Shown here one piece after another: positions 32,505 through 49,527 of a DNA stretch of 64,000 nt. The stretch covers positions 48,286 through 112,285 of the forward strand of contig CAJBBX010000083.1 of the NCBI GenBank assembly GCA_903951425.1. Reading direction: 5' to 3'. The DNA is from an uncultured Chthonomonas sp. GTDB taxonomy: Bacteria > Armatimonadota > Chthonomonadetes > Chthonomonadales > CAJBBX01. The notes under the pieces are model-generated. The model saw only the letters and a list, made by a program, of their open reading frames with translations, was not told the DNA's origin and made no database searches. Position numbers and translations under genes: made by a program. The first letter of the stretch is position 1, and the number at the start of each line of letters is the position of its first letter.

Positions 32505-32581
32505 CGGGGTGTGGCTCAGCTTGGTAGAGCGCGCGGTTCGGGACTGCGAGGTCGGAGGTTCAAATCCTCTCACCCCGACCA
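32505..32581 (+). tRNA. tRNA-Pro (anticodon CGG), CCA encoded
   Basis: Acceptor CGGGGTG/CACCCCG, D arm GCTC/GAGC, anticodon stem CGCGG/CTGCG with loop TTCGGGA, T loop TTCAAAT, 3' ACCA. Confidence 0.97.
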
Positions 32582-32690: not shown

Positions 32691-35033
32691 CTATCTGGGC
32701 GGGTCGCTCCGGATGCCCTTGCCGGTCACGAACGCCAGGTCCTCGAAGATCACTTCGGCGCCCGGTATGCCTGAACAACCGATGTACAGGCCCTCCAGTG
32801 GCGCTCCGGCCCGGGACATCTCCTGCACCGCCGGGTCCAGTGTGGTGGCGTAGCGGCCGAGGTGCGGGAACTCGCCGAAAGGGATATAGTCGGCCAGGGG
32901 GCTGTCGGGCGCGTCGAACCGGCCCTGGAGCTTGATCACCCACGAGCCGCCCGTCAGCCATCGGACCGTCATGTTCATCTGGCTGCAGCCGGAAGGCAGC
33001 AGGAGGCCGGGGAGGCGCGCCAGTCCCCACTTGGCCTCAGGCGCGAGCTTCACCCGGATGCCGCGCGCGGTGGCGGCCACCGTGGCGCCGTTGACGCCCT
33101 GCCAGTTCTCTGCCCGCCGCCAGATCGTGTCGGACCATGGCAGGGGAGCTGTCGTCCGCGTCTCGGCCGGGCGCCCCGCGACGCTGCGGCGCGAGGCCGG
33201 CGCCTGGGCAGCGAGGTGCATCAGCGTGCCGAGGTCCACGATCTCGAACCGCTCGGGGTCCAGCCGCTTCCGCAGCTCCCCCAGCGCCTCGGGCAGGTCG
33301 TTCTGGAGCCCATAGAACTCCAGGAAGGCGGGGAGGCTTCGCTCGGCGTAGGCCTTGTTCAGGTACTCGAGCAGCTTGTCCCAGTCGATGGTCCAGTGGT
33401 TTCCCCCAACCTTGCCCCAGGTCATCATCCAGTAGTAGGCCTCGCCGGCGGACAGCACTGGCGTCCGGTTTGGACCCGCGAAGGAGAGCCAGCCGTACCT
33501 GTGCGCGCCGGAGGGCTTGGGGAGGATGCCGCGAACCCCGGGCAACTCCCGCGCCAGCGCGTCGAACGCGTATTGCTGGTTGCTCCCCCAGAGCGAGACA
33601 TCCCGCACGTTCACCGTTTCCCGGATTACCCGCGCGGTGTTGCGGATGTGCTTGTCGACCAGGCCGGGCGGCATGAAGTCCATGTGGACATAACCGGCTC
33701 CGCTGGGGGCGCAGGCGAAGTGATCGGCCGGCGTCTTGGTCATGAAGTAGTAGTCGAACAGGGCCGGGAAGCGAGCCACGAGCAGCGGGTTCAGGTACCA
33801 GGTCCGGGGCACGTCGCAACGCGGCCGGTGGTCGGACCAGTCGAGCCTGGGCGCCTCGTCGCCGTCGAAGCGGGCTAGGGCATCGTAGACCTGGCTGCCC
33901 GGCCACCCCCACCACTGGAGGTTAGCCTTGAGGCCGAGGGTGTCGCCTTCGTTGCTCGTGAAGGCGATGTAGACCTTCTTCTTTGGCCTGTCGACGCGGG
34001 GGCGATCGTCCTGCCGGAACGGCAGCTTCACCAGGGGCTTGACGGCTGCGTGGAACGAGAGGTTGCCCGCGCCCGGCGTGTGGACCATGGAGTGGCCCCA
34101 ACGGCTCTGGTCGGCCTCGGCGGTGCCCCAACCGTAGCAGATCGCCGGGGCGCGGAGCTTCCGCATAATCGCGGCGAACGTCGCGGCGTCGTCGGGCGAC
34201 CCGGCGAGGCCCGTGCCCTGCGGGTTGGGGCCGCCGGCCACCAGCGTCGATGAAGCCTGGAGGCTGCTGATGTTGTACAGGAACGCCTTCTGGTGGAAGC
34301 CCACATCGGCGCCGATCAGGTAGTCGGGCCACTCGTTGGGTCCCATGAGGTTGTCGGGGAACCTGGCGTCCGGGCAGTATGAGCAGCCGGGGGCGAGCCT
34401 CGGGAGGCAGTTGGCCAGCAGCCAGCCATAGGCGGCGCGGCGCGACGGGAACTGGTTGCGCCCCACGGTCGCCACGATGCGGGCCGCACCGAAGGCGCCC
34501 CGATGCCGGCGGTAGAGGTCGGTCGAGACCGGCACGCAGAAGTTGGCGGAGGCGATGTTGCCCGCCACAAAGTGGTTGTCCGAGTTCGCCGCGTCGTAGA
34601 GGATCAGGCCGTTGAAGTGCGGCACGAGGGTGCGCACGAACGCATCGAAGGACGGCCCCTTGTTGACGAAGCGGAAGCCGTGCTTGTCGCGGTACCAGGC
34701 GCGCCAGACGTACTCGGTCTTGTAGCCGTAGATCGTGTGGTCGAGCCAGACTAGCGGCCCGCTCCGGTTGACCATCCCCTGGATGGCGTAGCGCGTCCAC
34801 TTCTCGTCGAAGAGGGGAAGCAGGCGCGCAGCGGCGCCGGGCGCGAACTGGGGCTCGCCGTGCCAGACGAAGCTCAGGACCTCGCGCGGCTTGAGGCTGA
34901 GGTCGCGGGGCGTGACGCGCCGCGCCGGGAGGCCGTACCAGCCGCGAAGAGGGGCTGCATCGACGCGGCAGGCCGGCGTCACCGTCCCGAGAAGGCCCAG
35001 GACGCAGAGGCCGACGGCGGTCAGTCGGGTCAT
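32691..35033 (-). CDS. Secreted GxGYxYP-like putative glycoside hydrolase
   Basis: Signal peptide; IQGMVNR, NLSFHA, YIAFTSNEGD, APSGAGY motifs. Confidence 0.7.
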   Translation of the reverse strand: MTRLTAVGLCVLGLLGTVTPACRVDAAPLRGWYGLPARRVTPRDLSLKPREVLSFVWHGEPQFAPGAAARLLPLFDEKWTRYAIQGMVNRSGPLVWLDHTIYGYKTEYVWRAWYRDKHGFRFVNKGPSFDAFVRTLVPHFNGLILYDAANSDNHFVAGNIASANFCVPVSTDLYRRHRGAFGAARIVATVGRNQFPSRRAAYGWLLANCLPRLAPGCSYCPDARFPDNLMGPNEWPDYLIGADVGFHQKAFLYNISSLQASSTLVAGGPNPQGTGLAGSPDDAATFAAIMRKLRAPAICYGWGTAEADQSRWGHSMVHTPGAGNLSFHAAVKPLVKLPFRQDDRPRVDRPKKKVYIAFTSNEGDTLGLKANLQWWGWPGSQVYDALARFDGDEAPRLDWSDHRPRCDVPRTWYLNPLLVARFPALFDYYFMTKTPADHFACAPSGAGYVHMDFMPPGLVDKHIRNTARVIRETVNVRDVSLWGSNQQYAFDALARELPGVRGILPKPSGAHRYGWLSFAGPNRTPVLSAGEAYYWMMTWGKVGGNHWTIDWDKLLEYLNKAYAERSLPAFLEFYGLQNDLPEALGELRKRLDPERFEIVDLGTLMHLAAQAPASRRSVAGRPAETRTTAPLPWSDTIWRRAENWQGVNGATVAATARGIRVKLAPEAKWGLARLPGLLLPSGCSQMNMTVRWLTGGSWVIKLQGRFDAPDSPLADYIPFGEFPHLGRYATTLDPAVQEMSRAGAPLEGLYIGCSGIPGAEVIFEDLAFVTGKGIRSDPPR

Positions 35034-35145
35034 GCGGCTCTCCAAGCGCGGGTCCTGCCGGACGCCGGGTTCAGGCGTCCGGCAGGGATCGGGGTCGTCG
35101 TCTTCGCGCCGCCCGGTCCTGCGATGCGAGCAGGACGGCGGTAGC

Positions 35146-35757
35146 TTACTTGACCTTGATGAACTCGTCCTTGGAGCGGGCGCAGACCGGGCAGTCGGTC
35201 GGAGCGCTGCCCTTGTAGGTCGAGCCGCAGACCGGGCAGACGTAGAAGATGGCCTTCGGCTTGGCGGCGGCGAGCTCCTTGAGCGCGGCGGCGTAGAGAA
35301 CCGCGTGCTGGCGCTCGGCCGAGATGGCGTAGGTGAACGAGCGGAGGGCGCCGTCCTGCCCTTCGGCCTCGGCCTCCTTGATCATCTTCGGGTACATCAC
35401 GTCCTTCTCGTACGTCTCGCCCTTGACGGCATCCTGGATGTTGGCCGCGGTGGCGGCCGGCGTTGCGGTGTACTTCCCGGGCTTCGGGTCGGTCACGCCC
35501 AGGTCGACGAGCTCGCTCATATGGTTGGCGGCATGGATCTTCTCGGCCGACGACGCGGCTCGGAAGAGGGTTGCGGCGGCTCCGAAGCCCTCCTGGTCGG
35601 CTTTCTTGGCGTAGGCGGCGTACTTGGCGCACGCCGTGGACTCGCCGATGTAGGCGGCCTTCAGGTTCGCTACGGTCTTCTCCGACTGGGCGGCTGCCGG
35701 CATCGCGATCGCGGAGATCGCGAGCGCTCCCAACGCCGTCCAAAGTCCAACGCGCAT
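35146..35757 (-). CDS. rbr: Rubrerythrin with an N-terminal signal peptide
   Basis: Diiron ligands GES, EKIH, GETYE, ERQH; rubredoxin CPVCG...CPVC; RBS AAAGGAG; leader MRVGLWTALGALAISAIAMPAAA. Confidence 0.92.
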   Translation of the reverse strand: MRVGLWTALGALAISAIAMPAAAQSEKTVANLKAAYIGESTACAKYAAYAKKADQEGFGAAATLFRAASSAEKIHAANHMSELVDLGVTDPKPGKYTATPAATAANIQDAVKGETYEKDVMYPKMIKEAEAEGQDGALRSFTYAISAERQHAVLYAAALKELAAAKPKAIFYVCPVCGSTYKGSAPTDCPVCARSKDEFIKVK

Positions 35758-35884: not shown

Positions 35885-38800
35885 CTATCGCGCCTCCAGC
35901 CGCACGTCCGCCCACTGGGCCCAGTCGCAGAGGTTGGCTCCGCTGCTGTCGGTGACGAGGCTCAGGAGGATGGGCTTGCCGGACCAGGCGCGCAGGTCTA
36001 CGGAGCCCTGCTGCCAGCCAATCGGGTAGGGCATGGGCAGGTTCCAGACCGCCTGGCCGTTCACCTGCACCTGGAAGGCCACGGCATTGCCTCCCTGGCG
36101 CACGCGGGCGCGGAACGTGAGGCGCAGCGGCTGGGCCGGGAGGCGGAGCGGCCAGTCGAGGACCGTGCGACCCTCGTCCGGCGTGTGGCCGTTGATGACG
36201 CGCGTGGGCCTGCCGTCGATCTCCTCCAGCGTTACCTCGCCGCTCCCGAAGACCGACGCCTCGCGCATGATGCCGCCGGATGCGGATCCGACGATAGGCG
36301 GCAGCGCGGCCAGCTCGACGCCGGGCTCCGCGGGGAGGGCGCGGAAGAGGAGCCCGAACGGCTGCGGGCGCGGCAGCTCGACCTCCAGCACTGCGCCGCC
36401 GCCGGGCGTGGGCTTCGTGCCGACGATGCGGCCGGGGCGGTCGGGATCGCCGAAGCAGGCTTCGGTCGTCCCCCCGGGGCTGTAGACGCTGAGCCGCAGG
36501 GGCTGCGCCGAGGCCTCGCCCAGGTTGATGACCCGAGGCTGGCCCCAGACCGCCCAGTCGAAGCTGACGACACCCTTGGGTCCGGGCGATGTGGAGAGGC
36601 GCAGGACGATGGAGCGCCCTTTGAAGGCCGTCAGGTCCGCCTCGCGCCAGACCCACTTCCCGCGCAACACGTGCTCCGAGAAGAGGCGGCGGCCGTCGGC
36701 GGAGACGATGAAGGTCGCTCCGTCGCTCAGCGGCGTCACCTTGTCGTCGGCGGCCTGGCGCGCATCGGTCAGGTCGCCCAGCCCCATGGCGAAGCGGAGA
36801 AGGGTCCGGCCGGACGCCGGGACCGACACCACGTACTCGCCGTAGGTCAAGCCGCCGGCGGTACTGCCCTCATAGGGCGGATGGGCCAGGATGCCCGGAA
36901 GGGCCTCGCCGCCACAGGCCGTCTGGGCCACTTTGAAGGAGGCGCCCGATCCGACGGGCTCCTGCCGCCCGCCGACCAGGATGCCCACGGCCGCCGACGT
37001 GGCGTTCTCCACCAGGTCGGCCACCACGGCGCTCTGGCCCGACAGCACGAAGAGCGCCCGCGCCGGGTTGTCGCGCACCTCCTGCACCACGATGGGGCTG
37101 GAGGCCGATGTCAGGTGGAGGAGCTTGGGGTTCGGCGGATCGGGGCTGATGGCGTAGAGGCGCTCCGGGTCCAGGCCGAAGAGGCGCTTGCCGTCGAAGG
37201 CGCGCCAATCCAGTACGGAGCCCTCTCCCTCGTAGGTGTTCACCTTGCCGAAGAGGGCCCAGGCGGGACGGTCGGGTGCGGATCGCGGGGCCAGGCGGCG
37301 GCCCGGAGGCGTGTCGAAGATGGCGCTGACGCCGCGATCGCCGCGCCAGGAGTAGAGCTCGGCCGGGAAGCGGACCTCCTCCGGAGCGGGGATCAGGCCA
37401 TGCTGCTGGAAGTAGCGCGCCTCGGAGATGACCAGGTTGGTGCCTTCGGCGCGCGGGTTCAGCGCCCCATCGATGCTCAGGGTCGGCCAGGCGCCCATGC
37501 GGTCGAAGAAGTCGTGGTGGTTCAGGAAGCCGGGCAGGGAGCTCTCTTGCGAGGGCATCCCCAGGTGCCCGTAGAGGCCACAGAAGGGAGAGAAGAGGAG
37601 GCCGCGCACCGGGTGCATCTGCACACCGGGCGCCTTGCTGAACCAGAAGGGCTCACCGATCTGGGCGAAGGAGCAGGCCAACAGCGTTTCGTTCAGTCCC
37701 TCGGTGCCCAGGGCCACGCCGGGCAGCGCGGCGCGTAGCTCGTTGAGGTAAACCTCCACGCCCCGGGAGCTGCTCATGCCATCGATGTCGCCCTCCACGG
37801 TGGAGACCAGCGTCGGGAAGTCCAGGTGGATCGCGTCGAACCCGACCTCCTCCCAGGCCTTGCGGAAGCGCTCGATCAGCAGCTCCCGCACCGGCGCGGC
37901 GGCGGGGTTGAGGCAGTATATCTGGCAAGGGTCGCCGGGGCGGTCAAGGTACCAGCCCGCCTGCGTGCCGGATGCGCGGTCGGTCTGGATGTACCGCTCC
38001 ACGCGCGGCAGGTCGGGGCTCTTTGGGCCGATGCCCACCATGTTGCCGTGGACCATCACTCGATAGCCCAGGCCCTGGACCGCCCGGCTCCACTCCACGA
38101 AGCCCTCGCGCGGCGTGTAGTCCGGGTAGAGCACGTCGTAGGGGAGCTTGCGCCACGTGGGAACGTAGATCAGGGTCTGCCGGGCGTCGACCCGTGAGGC
38201 GAGGTCGCGCAATGCCTGCAGCGTCGTGCTGTTGGGATCGGAGACGCGCACCAGAAGGCGTATCTGCCGCGCCCAGGCGGGGTCGCGCAGGGCGATGGGC
38301 TTCCGGCCCCGGCCCCAGGCCATGCGGGCGCGGTAGGCGAGCGCGGGGACCTTCCAGTCGCCCTTGTGGGCCTGGATGCGCCAGACCGGCGACGTCACGC
38401 TCCGTGCGTCGGCCAGGGCCTGGCGGCTCTCGGTTCCGAAGCTGAGGGTCAGCTCCCGGCCGACGCGCCTTATGGCGAGGCTCTTGTAGATGGCTTCGGG
38501 GTCATCAGCCCAGATGGAGAGCCCGCCGCGTGCGCCCTGCAGCGTGACCTGCGCCGCCTGCCAGTTGGAGGGCCAGTTCCAGAGCAGGGAGCCTGGGCCG
38601 CGCATGCCGTCGATGGCCTGCCCGCCCAGGAACGGGGCCACGATGCGGGCGCGCGCCGCGTCGATGCCCGCCACGCCCCAGTGCGCCGAGAACAGGGCCG
38701 CGGCGTCGCGCTTGCCGGTCAGTTGCACGGTGAGGGAGCCATCCGGCTCGGAGCCGAGGTCCAGAGCGAGGAGGGCGCCGGCGTCGCCGGAGAGCCCGCG

Positions 38801-39112
38801 GAGGGTCACGCGGACGCCCGCGCCACGCCGAACGGCCGAAACACGCGTGGTGCGGTCCACCGAGGAGGCGCCCTTGGCGTCGCGCAGTGAGGCGGAGCAG
38901 GCCGACGTCGGCTTCGGCGCGAAGAGGCTGTCGCCGCCCGTCAGGTTCGCCACCGAGACCAGCGCGCCGTCGCGGAACGTGGCCCGCAGCGTCTGCGTGG
39001 TCACTCCGACGGTCCGCTGGTCGGGCGAAACCGTCCAGAATGCGGCCCGGCCCGCAATGGGCAGCACGCCCAGGATAAGAGTCAGCAGCCCCAGCGCGCG
39101 TCGCGATCCCAT
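35885..39112 (-). CDS. Large secreted hypothetical protein: putative glycosidase TIM barrel (DUF6259-like) plus two C-terminal carbohydrate-binding-like repeats
   Basis: Signal peptide; YDVLYPDY, DAIHLD, LGTEG; repeated W..xDLxxxxGxxIxLxL...DWAxW. Confidence 0.65.
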   Translation of the reverse strand: MGSRRALGLLTLILGVLPIAGRAAFWTVSPDQRTVGVTTQTLRATFRDGALVSVANLTGGDSLFAPKPTSACSASLRDAKGASSVDRTTRVSAVRRGAGVRVTLRGLSGDAGALLALDLGSEPDGSLTVQLTGKRDAAALFSAHWGVAGIDAARARIVAPFLGGQAIDGMRGPGSLLWNWPSNWQAAQVTLQGARGGLSIWADDPEAIYKSLAIRRVGRELTLSFGTESRQALADARSVTSPVWRIQAHKGDWKVPALAYRARMAWGRGRKPIALRDPAWARQIRLLVRVSDPNSTTLQALRDLASRVDARQTLIYVPTWRKLPYDVLYPDYTPREGFVEWSRAVQGLGYRVMVHGNMVGIGPKSPDLPRVERYIQTDRASGTQAGWYLDRPGDPCQIYCLNPAAAPVRELLIERFRKAWEEVGFDAIHLDFPTLVSTVEGDIDGMSSSRGVEVYLNELRAALPGVALGTEGLNETLLACSFAQIGEPFWFSKAPGVQMHPVRGLLFSPFCGLYGHLGMPSQESSLPGFLNHHDFFDRMGAWPTLSIDGALNPRAEGTNLVISEARYFQQHGLIPAPEEVRFPAELYSWRGDRGVSAIFDTPPGRRLAPRSAPDRPAWALFGKVNTYEGEGSVLDWRAFDGKRLFGLDPERLYAISPDPPNPKLLHLTSASSPIVVQEVRDNPARALFVLSGQSAVVADLVENATSAAVGILVGGRQEPVGSGASFKVAQTACGGEALPGILAHPPYEGSTAGGLTYGEYVVSVPASGRTLLRFAMGLGDLTDARQAADDKVTPLSDGATFIVSADGRRLFSEHVLRGKWVWREADLTAFKGRSIVLRLSTSPGPKGVVSFDWAVWGQPRVINLGEASAQPLRLSVYSPGGTTEACFGDPDRPGRIVGTKPTPGGGAVLEVELPRPQPFGLLFRALPAEPGVELAALPPIVGSASGGIMREASVFGSGEVTLEEIDGRPTRVINGHTPDEGRTVLDWPLRLPAQPLRLTFRARVRQGGNAVAFQVQVNGQAVWNLPMPYPIGWQQGSVDLRAWSGKPILLSLVTDSSGANLCDWAQWADVRLEAR

Positions 39113-39172
39113 TGGTGGTGTCCCCCTACGCAGGCAGGATACCCAAGGGTGGTTGCGGCCGGGCGGCCGATG

Positions 39173-40768
39173 CTACTCGCGCCGCGAGATCGTCACTGCG
39201 GCTGAGGCCTGCGTGGCGGGGAGGCCGAACGTGACGTAACGGCGCTCGCCGATCCTGTGTACCCTGGATCGCAGAGGGGTCGTTCCCAGTTGAACTTGCG
39301 CCGCCGGCCATGCCGCCGGGAGGAGCATGCGCACCCTCGCTGCACACCGTAGCGGAGTGTCGATGCGGAGGGTGCGCGGCCCGATTGCGGCCGGAGCGCC
39401 TACTCTCACCCGAAGCGGATGCTCGCCGATCCGGCATGCGATTTCGCCGGAGCCTTCCAGCGACGGTTCGATGCACAACATCCGCGCGGGGGCGTCGTAG
39501 CGGATACCGAACAGCCCCTCAACGAGCGCCTGAATGTAGGACGACGAGGCGCCCGCGTAGTGGAAGGCGCCCTTGCGCGAACCGACGGCGTCGTCCTCGT
39601 AGTACTCCGCGAAGCCGCCGTCGCGGCCGGCCACCTCGGCCTGGGCGCGGAGCATCCGCCGCGCGAGGGCCGGATACCCCAGCCGGTAGAGGGCGATGGG
39701 GTACTTGTTGGAGAACCAGGTCCAGACGTCGCCGTTGTGGTAGCCCCCGCCGTCGAAGATGCCGTTGCGGCAGAAGAAGCCGTCAGGATAGGGTGGTGCG
39801 ACCATCCGGCCCCAGACCTTCAGGCCCTATTCGCTCTTCGCGATCGACTGCATGAGCCGCCCTGCGCGCGTCGCGCTGTCCGGTATCTCGTAGACCAGCG
39901 CCATCATGTTGTCGACTACCGGGAAGCGCGTGTCGCTCCGGACGGCGCAGGCCTGCATGGCGGCATCCGTGGTCACCGGGGTGCGCAGGATGGCAGGCTC
40001 ATAGCGCCCCCTTGCCTTGATCCAGAGATGCCGGTTGATGGCCCCGCGCAGTTCGGCGGACCTGGCCCGGCAGCTCCGGGCCTCCGCGTTCGCGCCGAGG
40101 TCGGCCTCCAGCTCCGATGCCTCCCGGTACGCCGCCACATACAGGATGTTGAAGTAGACGTGCGCCGTGGTGCGCGGCACGGCATGGTCGATGCTCACGT
40201 CGCTGTTGGGAGGTCCGTATGTCGCGAGGATGAGGCCGGTCCCGGCATCGCGCCGAACCTCCAGCGATGCCAGCGCCCTGCGGACGGCGGGAAGCTGCTG
40301 CACCACGAAGCTACGGTCTGCGTAGCACTTCCAGAGCACATGGCAGGCGTGCGTGAAGGTGTAGGCGCTTTCCATGTCGCGGTTCTGCTTGCGGTCCTGC
40401 GCCAGATCGTACCGGACACCGAAGTCCGGCACGCCCTCCTTGCCCCAGAAGGCCATGGGTATATTGCCGTCCGGCTCTTGGGCTGCGGCGAACTTCGTCA
40501 CGACGGCGCGCAGGCGGTCCCGGCAGTCGGCGCCCGTATACCTGTAGGCGTCCGCCGTGAAGACACTGTCCGTAAGCCAGATGCCGTCGTAGTGGCCGAC
40601 CGAGTCCGGCACGAATGCCGGCCCGCTCCGGCAGGCATCGATATCCCGCACCGCGATGGAGGCGGCGCGGCTCAACGCGGGCTCAACGGTGACCGAGAAG
40701 TCGCTCGCGGAATCGGGCAGCGCCGCGCAAGCAAGGGTCGCGATCGCAAGAGCACAGAGCGTGAGCAC
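39173..40768 (-). pseudogene. Secreted (alpha/alpha)6-barrel glycoside hydrolase-like gene interrupted by an in-frame TAG at 39829-39827
   Basis: ORFs 39827-40846 and 39173-39805 share a frame: AKSE*GLKVWGRMVAPPYPD; motifs YDGIWLTD, YHNGDVW, FAEYY, LVEGLFGI. GTG start at 40768 after GGGAG. Confidence 0.72.
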
Positions 40769-40872
40769 CGGGTGCGCTCCCTTCCGGGCGTGGCCGAACC
40801 GCCGCGCCTTCGGCAGAGTATAGCCAACGGGGACGTCGGTCGACACGAGGGGCAGACGCGGTCCGGCCGAAT

Positions 40873-41139
40873 CTACTCCCTGACCCTCCGCAGCACCGGC
40901 ACGGTGGCCAGGCCGAAGGCGTCACGGCCGTCGACCGGGAGCCGCGCGCCCTTCTCGGCGAACCGGTAGGTGCGGCCGGTCAGCGGCCCGTCCACGGTCA
41001 GGGCGGTGGCGCCGATGTACTCAAACTCGACCGCAGACGACACGTCCAGGCTCGCCGGACGCACGGTCGCCCGGACGCTTGGGGTTCCTACGGAGACGGC
41101 GCGGCGGGCTTCACCGCAGCATGGCCTATTGCTTCCCAT
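40873..41139 (-). CDS. Small hypothetical protein with an N-terminal CCG motif
   Basis: MGSNRPCCG...FEYIGATALTVDGPLTGRTYRF...VDGRDA; overlaps the upstream gene by 14 bp. Confidence 0.75.
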   Translation of the reverse strand: MGSNRPCCGEARRAVSVGTPSVRATVRPASLDVSSAVEFEYIGATALTVDGPLTGRTYRFAEKGARLPVDGRDAFGLATVPVLRRVRE

Positions 41140-41464
41140 CGGGGGGATCCTCGGTGTAGGTGATCGGCGGCGACACGGCCTCGTCGCGCGACGTGACCCG
41201 TTCCAGCAGGATGGCGCCGGCCGAGAACGCGAGCCACAGGAGGCCGCGCATGAGCCGATCGCGCCCGATGATGAGCGCGAACGGCGCCGATACCCAAAGG
41301 CTCAGGCACTGGAAGCAGTCCATCAACTGCCCCCAGAAGCCTGAGCCCGCGGCCTTGCGTAGTGCGACCAGCACCCGCCCCGGGCCGTCCTCGGCGTTCA
41401 GCAGATGCGTGATCCGCCAAACGCCGAGTATGCCCAGTGTGAGGGCCAGGTAACCCGGCTCCAT
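41126..41464 (-). CDS. DUF1360-like small membrane protein with CxxC
   Basis: WRITHLLNAEDGP and GQLMDCFQCLSLW; three hydrophobic segments. Confidence 0.8.
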   Translation of the reverse strand: MEPGYLALTLGILGVWRITHLLNAEDGPGRVLVALRKAAGSGFWGQLMDCFQCLSLWVSAPFALIIGRDRLMRGLLWLAFSAGAILLERVTSRDEAVSPPITYTEDPPDGKQ

Positions 41465-41475
41465 GTGGCTGACGG

Positions 41476-43674
41476 CTACGCGTCGATCACAGCGAATTTC
41501 CAGTAGTCGTAGCTGTAGACCGGGCTGGGGCAGTCATACTGCCAGTCGGCTGGGCCGAAGCCGCCGTCGCCTCCTGCGGGGCTGAAGGCTCGGCTGTTGA
41601 CCCTCAGCGAGAAGTCGTAGGCGCCCTGCAGGCTTGCGGCGCCCAGAGTGAAGATCGCGGACCGCGTGATGTTGTTGTCGAACGGTCCCGTGTGCCAGTG
41701 GGTGTAGGGGCTCTGCGAGACGCCTGCCACGGACGCCGGAGAGGCCGGGTCCGACCAGGCCGTCGGGGCCAGCTGGTTCAGCGCCCCGCCGCCGCATCCG
41801 GTGCCCCACAGGATCATGTCGCGCAGGTGCAGCGCGGATGCCTGGTAGGTCACCCGGAACTCAAGCCCGACGCCGTGCGGCCGATGGACGATGGCGCACG
41901 TCCTGGATAGGGCCGGATGGCCGTTCCAGCCGGTTTCGCCGGCAGAGCGCCAGCGGATCTCCGCGATCATCGCCGTGGGAGCGGTGTTGTCGACGTAGAG
42001 CCGCACCGGCGACGTCTGCGAGCCCGCGATGAGCGCCTTGCCGGCTGTGGCGAACTCCATCTGGACCTTGTAGACGCCCGGCGCTCCCGAGGGCCAGTTC
42101 AGCAGGAGCCGCGCCGGCATCCACCCGGCGGCCACGGGGAGGATGTCGTACCAGCCGTTGGCGTCCGGAGTGACCGTGAGGCCCTCCAGGTGCCCCGGCG
42201 CTCCGACCCAGCGCCAGAGCGGCCACGTGAGGTCCTTGAAGACGACCGACGCGCTCTCGACCCCGCCCGGCGGCTGGTGCGTGTAGCGCAGGCGGTAGTA
42301 CTTAGCGCTCTCGCGCTCGTTGCATCCGTAGAGCTGGAGGACGCCTGTGAACGGCGCGGTGGAAGCCGTGCCGAGCGGAGGCTCGATCGCGGGATCGGCC
42401 GTCGCGTGCGGCGGGTTCGGCCGCTGGGCGTATCCCGTTCCGTTGTCGATGTAGGGTGCGGCGCTGGGCAGGTTATGCAGCGGGTACAGGCCTGCGAGCA
42501 CGATGGCCGGGGTCTTGCAGGGCACCTCGACCTCGCCGCACATCGGGCTGTCCGCCGGGACCGGCGACGCGATCGCCACCGGAGACGCGATGATCTTCAC
42601 GTCCGGAATGGAGCCGGAGTCCCACCGGACGTCGCCGAACCCTTCGGAGTAGATGGTCTCGAGGTCGCCGTCGCCGTCCACATCCTGGCTCACCTTGATG
42701 GTGATGTCCGGCACGTCCAGGATGCGTTGCCATACCGGCACGATGTGCGTATGGCACCGGATGAACGGGCCGATCCATCGGTTGGCATCGACCTTGCCGA
42801 GAAGGTCGGCGATCTCACCAGCGACCCCGAGCGCCTCGGCGATTGGAGCCGCCGCGCCCTTGATCCGCGTCACGGCCAGCGCGTCGGGCATGGGGGGCGG
42901 TATGGGAGCCGCGAACGCCGGCTGGTCGAGCGTCGATGAACGAACCGCGGCGCGTGTCCCCGCCTTCAGCACCGGCGCCGCACGAAGCCCGGCGACCTGC
43001 TCCCTGCCGAGCAGGGGCTCCAGATGCTGCAGCACCGTCTCGTTGAGGAACGGTAGCGGGTCGGGATCGGGGCCCGGCCATCGGATCGGGGGCCATGGAC
43101 CGGGCTGCGGGATCAGCTCGGGCGGGATCACATGCTCGATGATATCCCAGATCGTCGGCTTGCGGAACATGACCGGGTAGCAGTGGCGAACCGCCCGCCA
43201 TCGGAGCACCCAGTCGATGTCGAACGACGGCACCCAGATGCAGAACCGGCCGCAGGCGTCGGTGGTCGTGGTTCCGATGACCTCGCGGTGGCTCCAGAAG
43301 GGGAAGTGCCAGACCCACGGGTGGCCGGGGGGTGCGAACGCGAGGAAGTGGCAGTCGGTGTCCTCAACCTCGACCGTGGCATGGGGCACGGGGTAATCGA
43401 CCCCGGTGGCCGGGTCCTTCTTGACGACCTGCCCGCAGACGCGTCGGAAACGCAGCAGGTCGGGATCGATGCGCCACTTGAACTTCTCGGCGATCTGCCC
43501 GATCGTGCCCTCTCTGATCTCGGCCACCGGCAACCCGGCCATCGAGGCCAGCCTCGCGGCCTGTGCTTTGGTGATCCTCGTAGAGTCGGGTGAGACTGGA
43601 CTGGTCTGGGCGGTCCCGTTGGCGGCGCCGTCCCTGCCGGCTGCGGAGAGCGCTTTCGTGTCGGTCTTGCTCAT
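41476..43674 (-). CDS. Large Cys/Trp/Pro-rich hypothetical protein with a carboxypeptidase-regulatory-like N-terminal beta domain
   Basis: RBS AGGAGG before ATG 43674; RVCGQV, ATVEVEDTDC, TTDACGRF, PGPDPDP, DVDGDGD; no signal peptide. Confidence 0.8.
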   Translation of the reverse strand: MSKTDTKALSAAGRDGAANGTAQTSPVSPDSTRITKAQAARLASMAGLPVAEIREGTIGQIAEKFKWRIDPDLLRFRRVCGQVVKKDPATGVDYPVPHATVEVEDTDCHFLAFAPPGHPWVWHFPFWSHREVIGTTTTDACGRFCIWVPSFDIDWVLRWRAVRHCYPVMFRKPTIWDIIEHVIPPELIPQPGPWPPIRWPGPDPDPLPFLNETVLQHLEPLLGREQVAGLRAAPVLKAGTRAAVRSSTLDQPAFAAPIPPPMPDALAVTRIKGAAAPIAEALGVAGEIADLLGKVDANRWIGPFIRCHTHIVPVWQRILDVPDITIKVSQDVDGDGDLETIYSEGFGDVRWDSGSIPDVKIIASPVAIASPVPADSPMCGEVEVPCKTPAIVLAGLYPLHNLPSAAPYIDNGTGYAQRPNPPHATADPAIEPPLGTASTAPFTGVLQLYGCNERESAKYYRLRYTHQPPGGVESASVVFKDLTWPLWRWVGAPGHLEGLTVTPDANGWYDILPVAAGWMPARLLLNWPSGAPGVYKVQMEFATAGKALIAGSQTSPVRLYVDNTAPTAMIAEIRWRSAGETGWNGHPALSRTCAIVHRPHGVGLEFRVTYQASALHLRDMILWGTGCGGGALNQLAPTAWSDPASPASVAGVSQSPYTHWHTGPFDNNITRSAIFTLGAASLQGAYDFSLRVNSRAFSPAGGDGGFGPADWQYDCPSPVYSYDYWKFAVIDA

Positions 43675-44086
43675 GGCTCCGAGCCTCCTGTGGGAGGAAT
43701 GGCTGCGCCGGCGGTCTCTGCCGATCGCATCGGTCACAGCCGGGTTGAGGCTGGCGGCCGACGGCAGGCGCCACACGGTGGCAGTGGCTTCCTGTCGTTG
43801 CCGGTCGTCAGGTCGTTCCGTTCCGTACGTGCTGAGGTCAGATGTCCTGCTGATCGAGATCAGAGCGGCTAGAGCGATATGTTGAAACAGCTCAGACCAT
43901 ACTACGCAGTCCGACCGCACGGGAATGGCTACATAAGTCCCCGAATGGGAGTTGGCTAGGTACCGGGGGGCTTGTTGCTGTCGTCTGCCCGGATACGAGC
44001 CGAGCCCTGTGCACGGGTACACACAGGAGATCGGCGGCGGGCGGCGAACCATTGGCTCGAGCCAATCCCCCACGGAGCCACCGCCC

Positions 44087-46108
44087 ATGACCGCCACTGC
44101 CTGCCACGCCGTCCTGACCGCGCTGATGCTTGCGGGCGCCCTCCTCTGTGCCGTGCGGCCGGTGGCCGCTGCGCCGAGGATGGAGCCCAAGTTCTGCAAC
44201 TTGATCTTCGCAGACACGGAATCGGACCAGACCGGGCTGCGGCGCTTCATCGACGGCGCACGGGCGCGCAAGCTGGAGGGGCGCCTTAAGCTGACGCTGT
44301 TGCTCCATTCCGACACCGCCCGGGCCGACAAATCTGGCAGTCGGGCCTTCTACCGAGAGATGGCGGACCAGGGCCACGAGATCGGCGTCTTCTTCGCCGA
44401 TGCCCGGCCCATCGTAGCCGCCTGGCTGGGGCTGCCCGAGGAGCGCATCACGACGGTGGGCTTCCAGCTCTTCGGCGACGTGGACGTCGAGGAGCAGGCT
44501 CGGGCTACGCAGCGAGGGTTCACGGCATCGGTGAACGCATGCATCGAGGGCGACTCGTTCGTGGAGGAGCGCTGGGACATACCGCATAACTGGGAGGGCG
44601 CGCCCTACCTGCCCTACTGGGTGCAGTGGGACGCCGCGAGGCCCGAGACGACGGCCCGCGTGAACCGCGAACTGACGAAGCGGCGGGCCACGCTGGAGTT
44701 GCAGTGGGCCACGCGCACCATGTGGCACAACTACGACCGCATCTGCCTGCCCCAGTGCTTCCACTTCGGCGAGCCCGTGAAGCACAGCCAGTGGCCCATC
44801 CAGCAGCTTTCGCGGCGCGGCGACATCGGATGGTGGAAGGCGGAGGTGGCCGAGCTGGAGGCCAACCTGGCCGCCGGGCGCACGCCGCTGCTCTATCTGA
44901 ACACCGCGTCCGAGGCCAACGTCTTCGTGCCAGGCGGCCCCTGGACGCCTATGCTGGATACCGACGAGGCGCTGGAGTGCGCGCTGGACCTTGCGGAGTA
45001 CCTGATCCAGCGGGGCTGGCAACTTGTGACCGTGCAGCAGTTCGTGGACTGGTTCTCGGCCCGGTGGCCCTGCCCGTCGGCGCCGTCGGCCGCCTACCTG
45101 ATGAAGGACACGCTGGCCGGCCTGGTGGACAAGCAGGGCCTGGCTATCCCGTCGCATGGGCGGTTGCTCCACGCCGAGACGCGCCATTTCCAGGTGATCG
45201 ACCATGAGAACCGCATGTCGCCGGAGATGGTGGTGGCCTACGACCTCGCCACCCCGAACCTGCTGCGCGGCGGGTACACCTTCGGCGACCCGGCGGTACA
45301 CGGTGCGGGCCAGAACCCCGGCCAGTATGCGGCCACTACAGGCAACGCGCTCTTCTGGAGCCCCTCGCCTCCGCTGGCCAACGCCAAGGGCGAGCCCTTC
45401 TACCATGTCAACAAGCCCGCGGCGGCCCGCGACCGCACTTTCACCCTCTACGTCGGCGATGAGTGGGCGCCATACCAGTTCGCGGCGGCCCGCTTCACCC
45501 GGGTGCGACGGATCGGCTCCGAAGTGCGCTGGACCAAGGAGATGGCCCGGCCCGTGGCGGGGTCCGACGTGCGGCTGCGCATGACGCATCGACTGGTGGG
45601 AGAGCAGCATCGGGTGCGCGTGGAGGTGCTGGGCAAGGGCGCCCTGGACAAGCCAGTCCGGCTCCGCCTGAGCCCCATGTTCCATCAGGGCTGGGACCGC
45701 GACTACCGCCGGGAGGCTCCGCCCTCGGACTCTATCGCCGATCCGGCTACGGCCGGCCAGGAGCGCAACGTCTTTGGCCATGCGGCGGGGGTGGAGTTCG
45801 CCTATTCGGAGAGCAACGCGGAGCGCACCGTTCGGCGTGTACCGCTGCCCCGCGGAGCGTGCCGCATCGGCTTGTTCAACCGGAACCCGGGCCACGCGCC
45901 GGGGTCGCCGGGATGGACCGTCGACGACAACCCCGACATGAACCGCGGCGTCACCCTATCCCTTCGCGCCGAGCGGGGAGCCTCCGTGGCGTTCATCGAC
46001 GAGCCGGGCCCGGGCAAGTACGTCACGGTGGAAGTGGAGTTCGGCGCCCATCGCGCGGGACAAGCGTACGAGTTCACGTTCACATACCGGCATGGGGATG
46101 TGAGGTGA
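44087..46108 (+). CDS. Secreted hypothetical protein, weakly polysaccharide-deacetylase-barrel-like
   Basis: Long ORF with host-like codon bias, signal peptide, GHEIG motif. Confidence 0.65.
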   Translation: MTATACHAVLTALMLAGALLCAVRPVAAAPRMEPKFCNLIFADTESDQTGLRRFIDGARARKLEGRLKLTLLLHSDTARADKSGSRAFYREMADQGHEIGVFFADARPIVAAWLGLPEERITTVGFQLFGDVDVEEQARATQRGFTASVNACIEGDSFVEERWDIPHNWEGAPYLPYWVQWDAARPETTARVNRELTKRRATLELQWATRTMWHNYDRICLPQCFHFGEPVKHSQWPIQQLSRRGDIGWWKAEVAELEANLAAGRTPLLYLNTASEANVFVPGGPWTPMLDTDEALECALDLAEYLIQRGWQLVTVQQFVDWFSARWPCPSAPSAAYLMKDTLAGLVDKQGLAIPSHGRLLHAETRHFQVIDHENRMSPEMVVAYDLATPNLLRGGYTFGDPAVHGAGQNPGQYAATTGNALFWSPSPPLANAKGEPFYHVNKPAAARDRTFTLYVGDEWAPYQFAAARFTRVRRIGSEVRWTKEMARPVAGSDVRLRMTHRLVGEQHRVRVEVLGKGALDKPVRLRLSPMFHQGWDRDYRREAPPSDSIADPATAGQERNVFGHAAGVEFAYSESNAERTVRRVPLPRGACRIGLFNRNPGHAPGSPGWTVDDNPDMNRGVTLSLRAERGASVAFIDEPGPGKYVTVEVEFGAHRAGQAYEFTFTYRHGDVR

Positions 46109-46202: not shown

Positions 46203-46519
46203 ATGAAGAAGCTGATGTTCGTCGGGGCCAGCCAGGATGATCTGCGCGACTTCCCTTCGGAGGCGCGGCGCCAGGCCGGGTTCGAGCTGTTCGCGTCCAG
46301 CTGGGCCTCTCGCCGTCGGACTGGAAGCCCATGGATGCAGTCGCGCCTGGCGTCCGCGAACTGCGCCTGCATGTGCTCGGGGAATGGCGTGTGGTCTACG
46401 TTGCGGCGCTTGCCGACGCGGTCTATGTGCTGCACTGCTTCCGCAAGAGGGCTCGAAAGACACCGCAGGCCGAGCTGGAGTTGGCTCGCCGGCGTTACCG
46501 GCAGATAGGGGATCGATGA
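46203..46519 (+). pseudogene. RelE/HigB (Gp49-like) toxin with a 1-nt frameshift near 46295
   Basis: MKKLMFVGASQDDLRDFP...GFELFA continues in the shifted frame as VQLGLSPSDWKPM...GVRELR...VYVLHCFRKRARKT. Confidence 0.85.
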
Positions 46520-46821
46520 TGGACGAACCTATGGTTGAGTCCAGCGGCAACGTGTTTGCGGACCTCGGCTTCGCCCCCGATGAGGCGGCCGTCCTGCAGA
46601 TGAGGGCAGCCCTTATGAGCGACCTCCGCGAGTACCTGAGCGCCACTGGGATGACACACGACCAGGCGGCCTCGGCGTTGCATCTCACCCGATCGCGCGT
46701 CGGCGACCTTGTGGCGGGTCGGTGGGAGAAGTTCAGCCTTGAGTCGCTAGTCTCGCTTGAAGGCCAGGCTCTCAAGGCCCGTAACCCTCCAGTTCGCCTG
46801 ACGTGCATATCCCTACGGTAG
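46516..46821 (+). CDS. XRE-family HTH antitoxin (HigA-like)
   Basis: SSGNVFADLG, AASALHLTRSRVGDL, KFSLESL; ATGA overlap with the toxin stop. Confidence 0.88.
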   Translation: MMDEPMVESSGNVFADLGFAPDEAAVLQMRAALMSDLREYLSATGMTHDQAASALHLTRSRVGDLVAGRWEKFSLESLVSLEGQALKARNPPVRLTCISLR

Positions 46822-47535: not shown

Positions 47536-49263
47536 CTACTTCGCCACCATCTGGGCCTTGAAGACCTGGATGCCCAGCGTGCGGTCGTCGTTGGCGGTGG
47601 CCGTCTTGCCGGGCACCCAGGCCTTCACGGTGATCTTGAGCTCCGCCTCCGCCTTTCCGGCGGTGAGCGCCTTGGGGATGCGGAACTTCAGTTCCTGCGC
47701 GCCGGCCTTGTCAAGCTTCACGCTCTCGCCGCCCACGATGGCCACGAGGTTGGTCGGGTCGGCCTTGGTGACCGATACCCATAGCGTCAGCTCGTAGTCT
47801 GTATCAGGCAGCACGGGCAGGCGCAGGCCCGCCTGAGCCATACTCCAACGATAGCCCTTGGCGCCGCCGGGGCCGTTCGGCGAAGGCTCGGGGCCGTTCC
47901 ATTGGCCGGTGAGGTACTCGTCGCTGTCACCCAGGCCCAACTCGATGGAGTAGGCCTTTGAGGCGGCCAGCGGCGAGGGGTAGGGTTCGTTGTCGCGGAT
48001 GATGGCCTTCTGAGCCGGGTCCTCGATCAGCACGCCGTTGGAGCCGTTGTTGCCGGTGATGATGGCGTGGCGCACGCCCGCGCCGAGCCGGATGCCCAGC
48101 TTGCCCACGAAACTGCTGCCCTGCACCTGTAGCCGGCCCGAGCGCGCATCAATGGCGGGCAGGCCCTCAGCCTTGGCGTCCCATCCGCTGAAGTAGCACC
48201 CCGTGAAGCCCACGAACGAGCGGCCGCGCAGGTCGGCGACGGTGCGGAAGCTGCCCCAGTAGTTGCAGTTTACCAACCGCACCTGGCCGGTACAGGTCTC
48301 GCTAACCACCAGGCCCCGGGGGTTCGTGCCGTTGAACGAGACGAACTGGCCGTTGGTGATGAGCAGGCCCATGGGCTGCACCTGGTCAACCTGCACCGCC
48401 ACCTGCGATGCGTCGGACCCATTCCCGGTGAACTGGCCGTTGCAGGCGCCCGCCTTCGTCTCGATGAAGCGGTAGCCGATGTTGGTGGGGAAGACGAAGT
48501 TGTTCGTCACGAACTCCCAGTCGGTGCGGCCGAAGACGAAGGCCTCGAGGTTCTTCCACATGAACTCGAAGACAGGTTCCCAGGCGCCGCCCACAGAGGG
48601 GTCTGACCACCAGTGGCAGTGGAACTGAACGTTTTCGACCCGGCCGATATCGCTGCAGGCGTCGATGAAGATGCCGCGCCGGAGAGCGCATCCGTAGACG
48701 CTCCGTATGCGGTGCCGCACGTTGCCCTCAGGCCCAACCCGGATGGCGTTGTAGCTGTTGATCAGCGTGACGTTCTCCACGGTGTTGTCGCCGCCCTGCA
48801 GGTGGAAGGTCCAGGAGTAGGGCCGAATGGCCGTGGGCTTCTGCTCGGGGTAGTAGACCGTGAGGCCCTGAACCGTGGAGCAGTCGCCCATCTCGAAGAG
48901 CGCCGGACCGTCCTCCTTGTCGCGCCCGCCCGTTGCGAGGACCACGCTGCCCAGCAGCGGCTTGATGTAGAGCGGCGCCACCGCGACGCCCACCAGGGCC
49001 ACGCCGGGCTTCACGCTCAGGCTGCCGGACACCAGGTACTTGCCCGCCGCCAGCCGCACCTGTCCGCCCTTCTCGGCGGCCTTGTCGATGGCGGCCTGGA
49101 TGGCCTTGGTGCAGTCGGTGACGCCGTCGGCTTTGGCGCCGAACGCCTCCGCTTCGTAGGTGCCGCCCAGCGCCGGCGGCGCCGGGGCAGGAGGCGCCTG
49201 CTGCGCCGAACACGGCGCGAGCGAGGCGAGTGCGAGTGCGAGGATAAGCACGGTTGCGGTCAT
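47536..49263 (-). CDS. Secreted pectate-lyase-3 / GH28-related beta-helix protein with a C-terminal beta-sandwich
   Basis: FGAKADGVTDCTKAIQAAID, GKYLV, DIGRVENVQF. Confidence 0.8.
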   Translation of the reverse strand: MTATVLILALALASLAPCSAQQAPPAPAPPALGGTYEAEAFGAKADGVTDCTKAIQAAIDKAAEKGGQVRLAAGKYLVSGSLSVKPGVALVGVAVAPLYIKPLLGSVVLATGGRDKEDGPALFEMGDCSTVQGLTVYYPEQKPTAIRPYSWTFHLQGGDNTVENVTLINSYNAIRVGPEGNVRHRIRSVYGCALRRGIFIDACSDIGRVENVQFHCHWWSDPSVGGAWEPVFEFMWKNLEAFVFGRTDWEFVTNNFVFPTNIGYRFIETKAGACNGQFTGNGSDASQVAVQVDQVQPMGLLITNGQFVSFNGTNPRGLVVSETCTGQVRLVNCNYWGSFRTVADLRGRSFVGFTGCYFSGWDAKAEGLPAIDARSGRLQVQGSSFVGKLGIRLGAGVRHAIITGNNGSNGVLIEDPAQKAIIRDNEPYPSPLAASKAYSIELGLGDSDEYLTGQWNGPEPSPNGPGGAKGYRWSMAQAGLRLPVLPDTDYELTLWVSVTKADPTNLVAIVGGESVKLDKAGAQELKFRIPKALTAGKAEAELKITVKAWVPGKTATANDDRTLGIQVFKAQMVAK

Positions 49264-49527
49264 GGCTCCAGCCTCCTTGGGCGGCGACGGCGCGGTCCCG
49301 GGTGGACGAATCTGCCCAGACCATAGGTTCGCCGGAGCTACTCACCCCTCCTGCATGTACCACAAGCAGGACTTTGGTCCACATGACGTCGTGTATCAGG
49401 CTCCTGTGCCCCTACCTCCACGTAGGTGCGAGGCGTAGGATTATCCGGGGTGTGAGTGCCCCACCGCTCGACTGCGGCTTGGCCGCTCATTTCGATCAGG
49501 CGTACATCTGCATTCAGGAGGCTTGTG

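Follow-up and report, generated by a model that had tools for sequence, protein, structure and literature searches.

What task could unite a 732-aa protein without a signal peptide, a 112-aa membrane protein with a CxxC motif and an 88-aa protein with a vicinal cysteine pair is the question raised by a three-gene cassette in the window, that is, the 64,000-nt stretch of contig CAJBBX010000083.1 of an uncultured Chthonomonas sp. (Armatimonadota) analysed here. An earlier note, made from the letters of the window, presented this locus as a cysteine-centred operon of no described pathway. We find a cassette that is real, strongly conserved and uncharacterised, and whose conserved features probably reflect thiol chemistry carried out where the cell membrane faces the cytoplasm. 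The elements considered below, as given by translation of the open reading frames (ORFs) and, for the last one, by the sequence, are as follows.

41476–43674, minus strand: large protein P0001, 732 aa
41126–41464, minus strand: membrane protein P0002, 112 aa, divergent DUF1360
40873–41139, minus strand: small protein P0003, 88 aa
43675–43951, minus strand: upstream non-coding region of the large gene

The sizes and tight coupling of the three minus-strand genes, as described in the earlier note, are verified in the sequence: an 11-bp gap (41465–41475) separates the large and membrane genes, and the membrane and small genes overlap by 14 bp (41126–41139). The long intergenic region ahead of the cassette is also there, with at least 277 bp of non-coding DNA bounded by a divergent plus-strand ORF at 43952. 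The large gene starts with the ATG at 43674 in 24 of 24 aligned homologues, the ORF reaching 44331 being an upstream extension, and a Shine-Dalgarno sequence AGGAGG (43684–43689) lies 9 nt ahead of this ATG. The sole minus-strand sigma-70-like site within 40500–44300 (41966–41993) is internal to the large gene, no minus-strand terminator-like site was found 3' of the small gene, and there is no Rfam match at E ≤ 1 in 43500–44300. A 408-nt metatranscriptome contig maps to the large gene (42305–42712, one mismatch); such libraries may hold DNA, so transcription is not demonstrated by it. The G+C content of the window is about 69%, and the source genome comprises 6.08 Mb in 188 contigs.

Relatives of the large protein were collected from one genome per species, yielding 135 relatives, of which 80 loci were kept; the final 80 rows are the kept loci plus the locus of the window's own genome, minus one locus without a full-length large ORF. 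Every ORF of these loci was compared with profiles of the small and membrane genes, with the following outcome.

Both the membrane and the small gene: 40 loci
Neither gene, with at least 1 kb of room: 25 loci
Too little room: 9 loci
Membrane gene only: 5 loci
Small gene only: 1 locus

Four of the five loci with the membrane gene only are from Hydrogenophaga, and in these a divergent 78–80-aa ORF starting MSCCQR overlaps the stop of the membrane gene; the fifth has only 480 bp of room. Counted overall, both small genes accompany the large one in 45 of the 80 loci, and the loci outside these and the 25 with neither gene are ambiguous or too short. As the same gene order recurs in about ten phyla (by tool labels, Armatimonadota, Actinomycetota, Pseudomonadota, Acidobacteriota, Planctomycetota, Chloroflexota/Thermomicrobiota, Gemmatimonadota, Chlorobiota, Bacteroidota and Cyanobacteriota), the arrangement far exceeds what chance would give, and the co-occurrence across taxa presumed in the earlier note is borne out. 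Two starred main clades are seen in the FastTree tree of the large proteins (midpoint rooting for drawing only). In the first, all 42 rows either have the partners or lack room, the small gene lying beside the membrane gene wherever room exists, while the other contains 25 stand-alone large genes, seven trios (the window included) and six loci without room. The tree departs from the taxonomy, with a row from Chloroflexales nested in Betaproteobacteria, and Spirosoma is placed in an unresolved fork together with a pair from Armatimonadota and a group from Chloroflexota. Alignment columns dividing the large proteins of trios from the stand-alone ones tracked the clades, and no interface emerged from them. 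Beyond the trio we observe no conserved flanking genes; the flanks differ from locus to locus.

A scan of metagenomes with P0002 gave at least 554 relatives, and the best 80 of them, 50–73% identical to P0002, were analysed. The small gene adjoins the membrane gene in 72 of these 80 loci, five of the other eight having too little room, and the window's large protein is adjacent in only three (tblastn). In most of the metagenome loci with room, another plus-strand ORF of 700–850 aa lies directly upstream of the pair. In profile–profile comparison with the window's large family, group A7 of these proteins aligns over the N-terminal ~470 columns (99.1%, E 1e-18), and groups A6 (87.5%, E 3.6e-6) and A5 (64.7%, E 6e-5) align over the C-terminal half. 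The match of group A8 is not significant (15.7%, E 1.7e-3); A8 visibly shares the motifs PDI-x-F-x-V-x-Q...RW and, at the C-terminus, CCY-x-F-x-L...R, the latter corresponding to GAYDFSLRVNSRAF in P0001. With five large-family profiles, a member of the superfamily was found beside the pair in 44 loci and none in 14 loci with at least 2.3 kb of room, the other 22 being too short. P0001 is assigned, on profile evidence, to one of at least five very divergent subfamilies of ~700 aa that fill this slot. The other large proteins of the slot are 16–27% identical to P0001 in pairwise comparisons, hence the large partner evolves much faster than the pair. Signal peptide-like N-termini were not seen, by eye, among the large subfamilies, some of which have extreme Trp/Cys stretches (WCCGWWPWWWW, CFCWCSCPYCFPCWPCWPVWWECWPWWWEF). 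The three-gene unit of the earlier note stands as to the genes and their order, but the conserved core is the pair of membrane and small genes, not the trio; the slot is filled by divergent families and the large family is often found alone.

In two metagenome loci (L132:3151–4971 and L139:1885–3702), the slot holds a protein of 605–607 aa with the eCIS_core domain (PF13699, formerly DUF4157). It opens with ...CCGSKRMQFR, nearly the small-protein tag of that locus (MCCGAKRVQAR), and this sharing suggests that the CCG-x-K-R tag behaves as a portable handle. Three more loci (L106:1066–4970, L138:3–2144 and L152:1509–4667) have the pair divergent from the start of a contractile injection system cluster, with genes for a Pvc16_N-like protein (E 9e-5 to 9gts), a 218-aa protein that matches nothing in the PDB and a sheath protein (9ezm, E 1e-128; Afp2/3 and Pvc2/3 are matched too). 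A Pvc16_N gene is present elsewhere in the genome in two of five other trio genomes. Matches to the sheath (PF04984), Pvc16_N (PF14065) and eCIS_core (PF13699) are all absent from the genome of the window, whose marker-gene completeness is 100%; for PF14065 and PF13699 the control genomes were blank too, which makes these two negatives weak. The link with injection systems is occasional, not obligatory.

P0002 has three predicted transmembrane (TM) segments (residues ~5–22, 50–67 and 75–89). The CFQC that the earlier note placed at a TM boundary is found there: C50 and C53 open the second hydrophobic segment (TM2) and are invariant in 33 of 33 sequences, as are W16, R17, E25, G27, P28, W57 and W77. 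Over 113 membrane-protein sequences, lysine and arginine average 3.42 residues in loop 1 and 3.41 in the C-terminal tail, against 1.28 in loop 2, a bias that under the positive-inside rule predicts an N-out/C-in topology. TM2 would then have its CxxC end on the cytoplasmic side, and the CxxC would share the cytoplasmic interface with the W-R of TM1, EDGP and E88.

The label "DUF1360-like" given to P0002 in the earlier note is upheld. The score of P0002 itself against Pfam DUF1360 (PF07098) is 17.7 bits (E 0.0036), below the gathering score of 21 bits, yet PF07098 is found at E ≤ 0.01 in 32 of the 33 relatives aligned with it, 1e-9 being the best value, and P0002 matches phrog_781 of PHROGs at E 7.5e-7. 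We classify it, by sequence similarity, as DUF1360-like, on a divergent branch. It is similar to DUF1360/PHROG 781 proteins in size, hydrophobic segments and the CxxC at a TM boundary, and its branch differs in the coupling to a CC-tagged small protein. DUF1360 is a family of no known function, and membership in it explains nothing. Judging from the match to the Pfam family, DUF1360 members without the small partner appear to keep the CxxC, an indication that this motif has a role of its own. P0002 has no match in NCBIfam or PADLOC, and its tblastn search against 50,697 phage records gave no match at E ≤ 1e-3; the family-library scans of the three proteins also returned an insignificant match to SAV_915 (E 0.027). 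Fused forms of the membrane or small protein were not found among longer proteins, which is weak evidence.

In P0003, the CCG noted near its start occupies residues 7–9. The protein is laid out as a Cys-Cys-Gly tag followed by Arg (residues 7–12), a low-complexity, variable Pro/Ala-rich linker and a compact C-terminal domain (36–88), likewise without a signal peptide. The family N-terminus is nearly always M-(x)-CCG-x-x-R; C8 is invariant in 71 small-family sequences, and C7, G9, R12, Y41, G43, G51, Y58, F60 and D70 are conserved at ≥90%. A search with the small-family profile over 1.84 billion representative proteins yielded 2,909 clusters (50% identity) at E ≤ 1e-3 and 1,555 at E ≤ 1e-10. 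Among the 150 matches listed, nearly all are 75–110 aa long with the profile starting at residue 1, so the CC tag sits at the true N-terminus. In the AlphaFold2 (AF2) model of P0003 (predicted local distance difference test, pLDDT, 75), residues 1–33 are of low confidence and residues 40–88 reach ~90, with residues 36–88 modelled as a beta-beta-beta-beta-alpha-beta domain. The best fold matches of this modelled domain, YqbF (Z 5.0), the C-terminal domain of lambda gpFI (Z 4.7) and the C-terminal domain of AS3MT (Z 4.5), fall below the meaningful level. None of the 71 family sequences has a Pfam match, and P0003 has no match in NCBIfam, PHROGs or PADLOC.

The large protein was said in the earlier note to have many Cys and Trp. 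This holds for Trp (26 of 732 residues, 3.6%) and not for Cys (12 residues, 1.6%, near ordinary), though the latter are strikingly conserved; with 77 Pro (10.5%), P0001 is Trp- and Pro-rich, not Cys-rich. The PGPDPDP segment and the DVDGDGD loop are both found in P0001, which, as stated earlier, has no signal peptide; an N-terminal hydrophobic segment is present in 0 of 120 database homologues. Of 8,000 candidates scored in a word-indexed search, 536 are homologues at E ≤ 0.001. Their lengths are 680–740 aa, they come from many phyla, none of the 120 listed carries a Pfam domain, and the closest relative (94% identity) is from a metagenome-assembled genome of Armatimonadota. The AF2 model of P0001 (24-sequence alignment; pLDDT 74, predicted TM-score 0.49) suggests the following organization, the transthyretin-like sandwich below being indicated by the fold search as well.

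Before residue 36: disordered, basic N-terminus
Residues 36–74: short helical domain
Residues 76–149: transthyretin-like beta-sandwich
Between 149 and 300: helices and Pro-rich linker, low confidence
Residues 300–440: beta domain holding the DVDGDGD loop
Residues 445–560: second beta domain
Residues 567–732: C-terminal Ig-like sandwich

With the whole P0001 model, Foldseek gave tandem Ig-like matches only (TM-scores 0.09–0.15 on the query). In the fold search of the model, which covered 48,161 chains and barely probed residues ~370–560, residues 76–149 matched 3e8v (Z 9.3, root-mean-square deviation 2.1, 78 residues) and the transthyretin-like domain of carboxypeptidase D (Z 8.6, ~80 residues), and residues 564–732 matched RbmA (Z 8.4) and pilin and adhesin domains (Z 7–8.4). 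These model-based matches are generic only, i.e., to common folds that carry no function. Residues 76–149 superpose on the CarboxypepD_reg/transthyretin-like fold; a Pfam match is seen in 0 of 24 members of the P0001 family, and a distant large-subfamily member matches CarboxypepD_reg at E 7.5e-4, below the cut-off. In sequence libraries, P0001 has no match in Pfam, NCBIfam or PADLOC and, in PHROGs, only the insignificant phrog_32619 (E 0.038). When the PDB was searched by sequence with profiles of the large family and of three further subfamilies, no match was below E 0.1 apart from two rows for profile A1, both at chance level, and the ESM Atlas gave unnamed clusters only, one related 582-aa cluster having TTR-52 on 30% of its members. 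The large protein thus matches no characterised family in Pfam, NCBIfam, PHROGs, PADLOC, PDB-profile and fold searches, in agreement with the earlier note.

Twelve Cys columns are conserved at ≥92% in 194 distinct sequences of the large family, so that, together with the CxxC of the membrane protein and C7 and C8 of the small protein, conserved cysteines are seen in all three proteins, as the earlier note had expected. P0001 departs at two of these columns (S128 and A374) and carries C379 and C715 instead. C108 and C128 are jointly absent in 11 large-family sequences, C128 alone in four, P0001 included; C386 and C451 are lost in one sequence, and C80, C108, C128 and C145 in another. The commonest total is 12 Cys (94 of 194 sequences), and odd totals occur in 68 of 194, some of these being ORFs with N-terminal extensions. 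Such paired loss is the behaviour expected of disulfide partners. An HWH motif and His616 are also conserved in the window's large family.

What is conserved in the core pair amounts to thiols on a single face of the membrane, and neither protein is exported; we therefore favour, at a rough probability of 30%, a thiol relay that would work on the large protein from the cytoplasmic side of the membrane. In its favour we count the tight linkage of the pair, the conservation of all four thiols, the clustering of the conserved polar residues of the membrane protein on the predicted cytoplasmic face, the paired loss of Cys in the large family, the higher Cys and Trp content of the ORFs next to the pair than of other ORFs in the metagenome loci, the portable tag and the CxxC of other DUF1360 members. 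The DUF1360-type protein, holding CxxC, W-R and E-D-G-P at the cytoplasmic interface, would be the catalytic or anchoring partner. The small protein would present its N-terminal Cys-Cys (M-x-CCG-x-x-R) to the membrane CxxC, the flexible linker joining this tag to a C-terminal domain that may grip the large client. The client would be the signal-less large protein, Trp-enriched and mildly Cys-enriched, with Cys behaving as pairs. The most likely chemistry would be thiol–disulfide exchange, making or reshuffling the Cys pairs of the client, with the membrane protein as a terminal acceptor. In this scheme, contact among the three proteins, the way the electrons flow, the involvement of a quinone or metal and the disulfides of the client are what we infer. 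A thiol-redox, metal or anchoring role, as proposed in the earlier note, fits the motifs and the predicted cytoplasm-facing CxxC. A bolder version, in which this would be the first bacterial cytoplasm-facing disulfide-forming or thiol-modifying machine, the DUF1360 enzyme oxidising or acylating the CC of a small swinging-arm adaptor that in turn matures, at the inner membrane face, Cys/Trp-rich large proteins lacking signal peptides, we regard as unlikely.

Several observations weigh against the thiol relay. The large family stands alone in 25 of 80 loci and retains its Cys there; moreover, five of five stand-alone genomes searched whole (one of them a complete chromosome) have no convincing membrane gene, the sole match having E 0.004 and an internal stop. 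The Cys enrichment of the neighbours of the pair is real but modest: the 41 pair-adjacent ORFs of at least 250 aa have medians of 1.9% Cys and 2.2% Trp, compared to 1.1% and 1.3% for a set of 81 ORFs elsewhere in those loci. Some slot occupants are Cys-poor, namely a protein kinase (L149), a 338-aa protein (0–1 Cys) and the eCIS_core proteins, and a contractile-injection cluster is headed by the pair in three of the 80 metagenome loci. (The slot neighbour in L134 shares N-terminal sequence with the kinase of L149.) A thioredoxin fold, flavin site or quinone site was recognised in no part of the cassette by family-library and fold searches, and disulfides formed in the reducing cytoplasm would need protection. 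The topology of the membrane protein is a prediction from a single rule, the positive-inside one, and metal ligand pairs, too, could be lost two Cys at a time. A complex prediction for the membrane and small proteins (alignments A2 and A3) scored 0.00 in two runs without controls and is evidence neither way.

The same motifs could serve a static link rather than chemistry. The CxxC and the CC of the small protein would then form a membrane tether through a shared metal ion, as in the CD4–Lck zinc clasp, a disulfide or a lipid, and the small protein would be an adaptor holding the large protein or other cargo. The order of parts in the small protein, from tag through variable Pro/Ala-rich linker to compact domain, is what one would expect of a tether. 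The CC tag, which is followed by basic residues, resembles eukaryotic dual-palmitoylation motifs, e.g., that of GAP-43. The Trp-rich loops of the large proteins (with WCCGWWPWWWW in some) suggest binding at the membrane interface, and the tag recurs on the eCIS_core protein, with the pair adjoining injection-system clusters in three loci. However, the retention of the CxxC in DUF1360 proteins without the small partner argues for a chemistry of its own, the large family often occurs without the pair, and we know of no cytoplasmic S-acylation in bacteria; we consider a tether rather doubtful. A thiophilic ion (Cu, Hg, Zn or As) might instead be passed across or along the membrane between the CxxC membrane protein and the vicinal Cys of the small protein, with MerT/MerF and the ArsD chaperone (Cys12–Cys13 pair) as models. 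MerT is ~110 aa long with three TM segments, and the membrane protein is likewise of ~110 aa with three TM segments and a Cys pair at the membrane boundary. The vicinal CC lies at a flexible N-terminus, the small-protein domain weakly resembles the C-terminal domain of As(III) methyltransferase (Z 4.5 and 3.6), and HWH and His616 might be ligands in the window's large family. On the other side, mer, ars and cop genes and metal regulators do not recur in the flanks, the membrane protein has a single Cys pair only, HWH is not retained in the other large subfamilies, and the methyltransferase matches are below the meaningful level, so that we hold a metal hand-off to be quite unlikely.

A reading that turns on the large protein rather than on the thiols is a module for release or conflict, where the large proteins would be polymorphic effectors or adhesins of extracellular type, the membrane protein, with its three TM segments, something like a class I holin or a gate of type 10 secretion, or else an immunity protein, and the small protein its regulator. 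It would account for the fast evolution of the large protein (16–27% identity, vs 50–73% for the metagenome membrane proteins), for its Ig-, pilin- and adhesin-like folds, DxDxDG loop and paired Cys, which resemble those of exported proteins, and for eCIS_core proteins in the slot and pairs heading clusters of injection systems, which are released by lysis. The patchy distribution (2 of 301 genomes of the phylum), the replacement of the cassette by a Septu system in a sister genome, described below, and a HigB/HigA-like pair 2.5 kb away point the same way. Nevertheless, none of the three proteins matches a PADLOC-DB 2.0 family at E ≤ 0.1, we noticed no cell-wall hydrolase or endolysin beside the pair (the flanks were not scanned systematically for endolysin), and housekeeping genes predominate around 23 stand-alone loci. 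Invariant residues such as the CxxC, W-R and EDGP are atypical of holins, no relative was found in phage, viral or plasmid collections, and the own genome lacks sheath, Pvc16_N and eCIS_core matches (the controls being blank for the latter two); this reading, too, we consider rather doubtful. Finally, the large gene and the pair could be neighbours by shared mobility only, with independent functions, as the large gene is alone in 25 of 80 loci and the pair has no detected large-family gene in 14 of 58 informative loci. This we find highly improbable: the order and strand are constant across about ten phyla, with short gaps or overlaps, and distant relatives of one superfamily fill the slot in 44 of the 58 informative loci. 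The weight left over goes to something we have not thought of.

Comparison with known systems sets the thiol relay apart from the described pathways. DsbB and VKOR have four TM helices, two essential Cys pairs and a periplasmic active site. The DsbB–DsbA and VKOR–thioredoxin systems are similar to the cassette in having a membrane CxxC at a helix end, a soluble thiol partner and clients with paired Cys. P0002 differs in having three TM segments, one Cys pair and a CxxC predicted to be cytoplasmic; given these features and the absence of a Pfam or NCBIfam match, its membership in DsbB/VKOR was rejected. DsbA and thioredoxin differ from the small protein, which has no thioredoxin fold, and no sequence or fold relation was found. 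A carrier of thioredoxin/glutaredoxin fold was rejected for P0003 as well, its vicinal CC lying in a disordered N-terminus, its domain being modelled as beta-beta-beta-beta-alpha-beta, with Pfam matches in 0 of 71 sequences and the best Z of 5.0 (YqbF). The poxvirus E10R–A2.5L–G4L system is a cytoplasmic disulfide pathway with a very small Cys-pair adaptor, oxidising structural proteins without signal peptides. A dedicated relay with a tiny Cys-pair adaptor is likewise proposed for the cassette, where the resemblance would be functional only; the cassette has no Erv/ALR flavin oxidase and no glutaredoxin. Class I holins have three TM segments in N-out/C-in orientation and form lysis cassettes with an endolysin. 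Like them and type 10 gates, P0002 has ~100 aa, three TM segments, a predicted N-out/C-in topology and a charged C-terminal tail, and it adjoins signal-less proteins and, in three loci, an injection-system cluster; it differs from class I holins in its strongly conserved polar and Cys residues, and it was not found in the phage collections searched. Two more candidates were rejected: a known anti-phage defence system, as no PADLOC model is matched by any of the three proteins at E ≤ 0.1, and an extracellular contractile injection system locus in the window, as the own genome has no sheath match, the Pvc16_N and eCIS_core blanks being weak. None of the three proteins matches a characterised system, in line with the earlier note, which recognised no described pathway, and no description of this operon was found in the full-text literature searches made here.

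The distribution of the cassette is that of an accessory element. The large protein has no relative in IMG/VR viral contigs or plasmid records, and the small gene occurs in two of 301 sampled genomes of the phylum, the window's own and that of one congener. A further congener, G195 (100% complete), has retained the flanks at 86–90% identity, and window positions 39168–43318 are replaced there by 2.46 kb encoding Septu, with PtuA (PADLOC E 2e-155) and PtuB (E 5e-62) in L172 (G195:C88:17500–27000, region 3700–5750), and approximately the first 121 codons of the large gene are retained as a remnant. Consequently, the cassette is accessory, was present in the ancestor of these congeneric genomes and occupies a variable spot.

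Some further observations concern the genes of the cassette and their relatives. Six genome loci (L052:4518–5915, L063, L065, L073, L053:4380–5711 and L057) have a gene for a protein of 443–465 aa immediately upstream of the large gene and co-directional with it; the one representative scanned, from L052, has no Pfam match, and in L053 this gene separates the large gene from the pair. In some lineages it may represent a fourth component, one that the window lacks. Five ORFs that cluster with the large proteins are found upstream of the matched large gene, in the same orientation, and may be tandem paralogues or split genes, L004:3680–5932 (751 aa, no Pfam match) possibly being one. The metagenome locus L132 has, further upstream, a second protein with an N-terminal motif that is DUF4157-like by eye only. 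In P0146 (138 aa, a single metagenome record in a cluster of one), the C-terminus of the membrane protein reads straight into a small-protein homologue without its own Met, which may be a natural fusion or a gene-calling artefact. A pattern scan of the window's own genome for other CCG-tagged proteins returned mostly spurious ORFs; it also returned, outside the window, an 890-aa ORF (G000:C110:72256–74928, plus strand) that opens with MRCCGKGR, resembling the small-protein tag, followed by a hydrophobic segment.

In the window itself, the gene directly downstream of the cassette (39173–40846, minus strand) encodes a six-hairpin glycoside hydrolase, the first part of which matches MGH1-like/rhamnosidase-like families. 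It begins 27 bp past the small gene, with no terminator-like site in between, and an in-frame TAG (39827–39829) divides it into ORFs of 339 and 210 aa; a pseudogene, a sequencing error and a pair of separate genes are all conceivable. At a distance of 2.5 kb from the cassette, the plus strand carries the HigB/HigA-like pair (46331–46821), a Gp49/HigB-like toxin ORF (PF05973, E 4e-15) followed by an HTH_37 antitoxin-like ORF (E 3e-9). A tRNA gene (32505–32578, plus strand) is the sole Rfam match of the window at the gathering score. The surroundings are mostly large predicted polysaccharide-active or surface proteins (35885–39112, 32691–35381, 47536–49263 and 49456–51546), with DUF6259 and NPCBM, GxGYxYP, pectate-lyase-like, and RCC1 repeats and Big_3_5 features, none of which recurs beside the cassette in other taxa.

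To our knowledge, bacteria have no dedicated thiol machine on the cytoplasmic side of the membrane. Beyond the first reading of this locus, what is new is the two-gene core, the fast-diverging superfamily of large proteins that also stand alone, and thiol motifs predicted to be cytoplasmic. In phage Jabs, a spontaneous origin of the virion-wide disulfides versus an origin from host or phage oxidoreductases is, according to a 2026 preprint, an open question (10.64898/2026.07.24.740622). If a cytoplasm-facing machine is true, phage DUF1360 proteins could be the missing catalyst for such disulfide-stapled virions. Even if the relay is wrong, the cassette is a defined, testable unit with cultured carriers such as Hydrogenophaga taeniospiralis (L036) and Mesorhizobium sp. 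AaZ16 (L027). It comprises a two-gene core with a rapidly diversifying large partner, scattered through about ten phyla, and in a sister genome a defence system has taken its place. If the relay is true, it would bear on the maturation of signal-less proteins with paired Cys and, via DUF1360, possibly on that of phage particles and injection systems.

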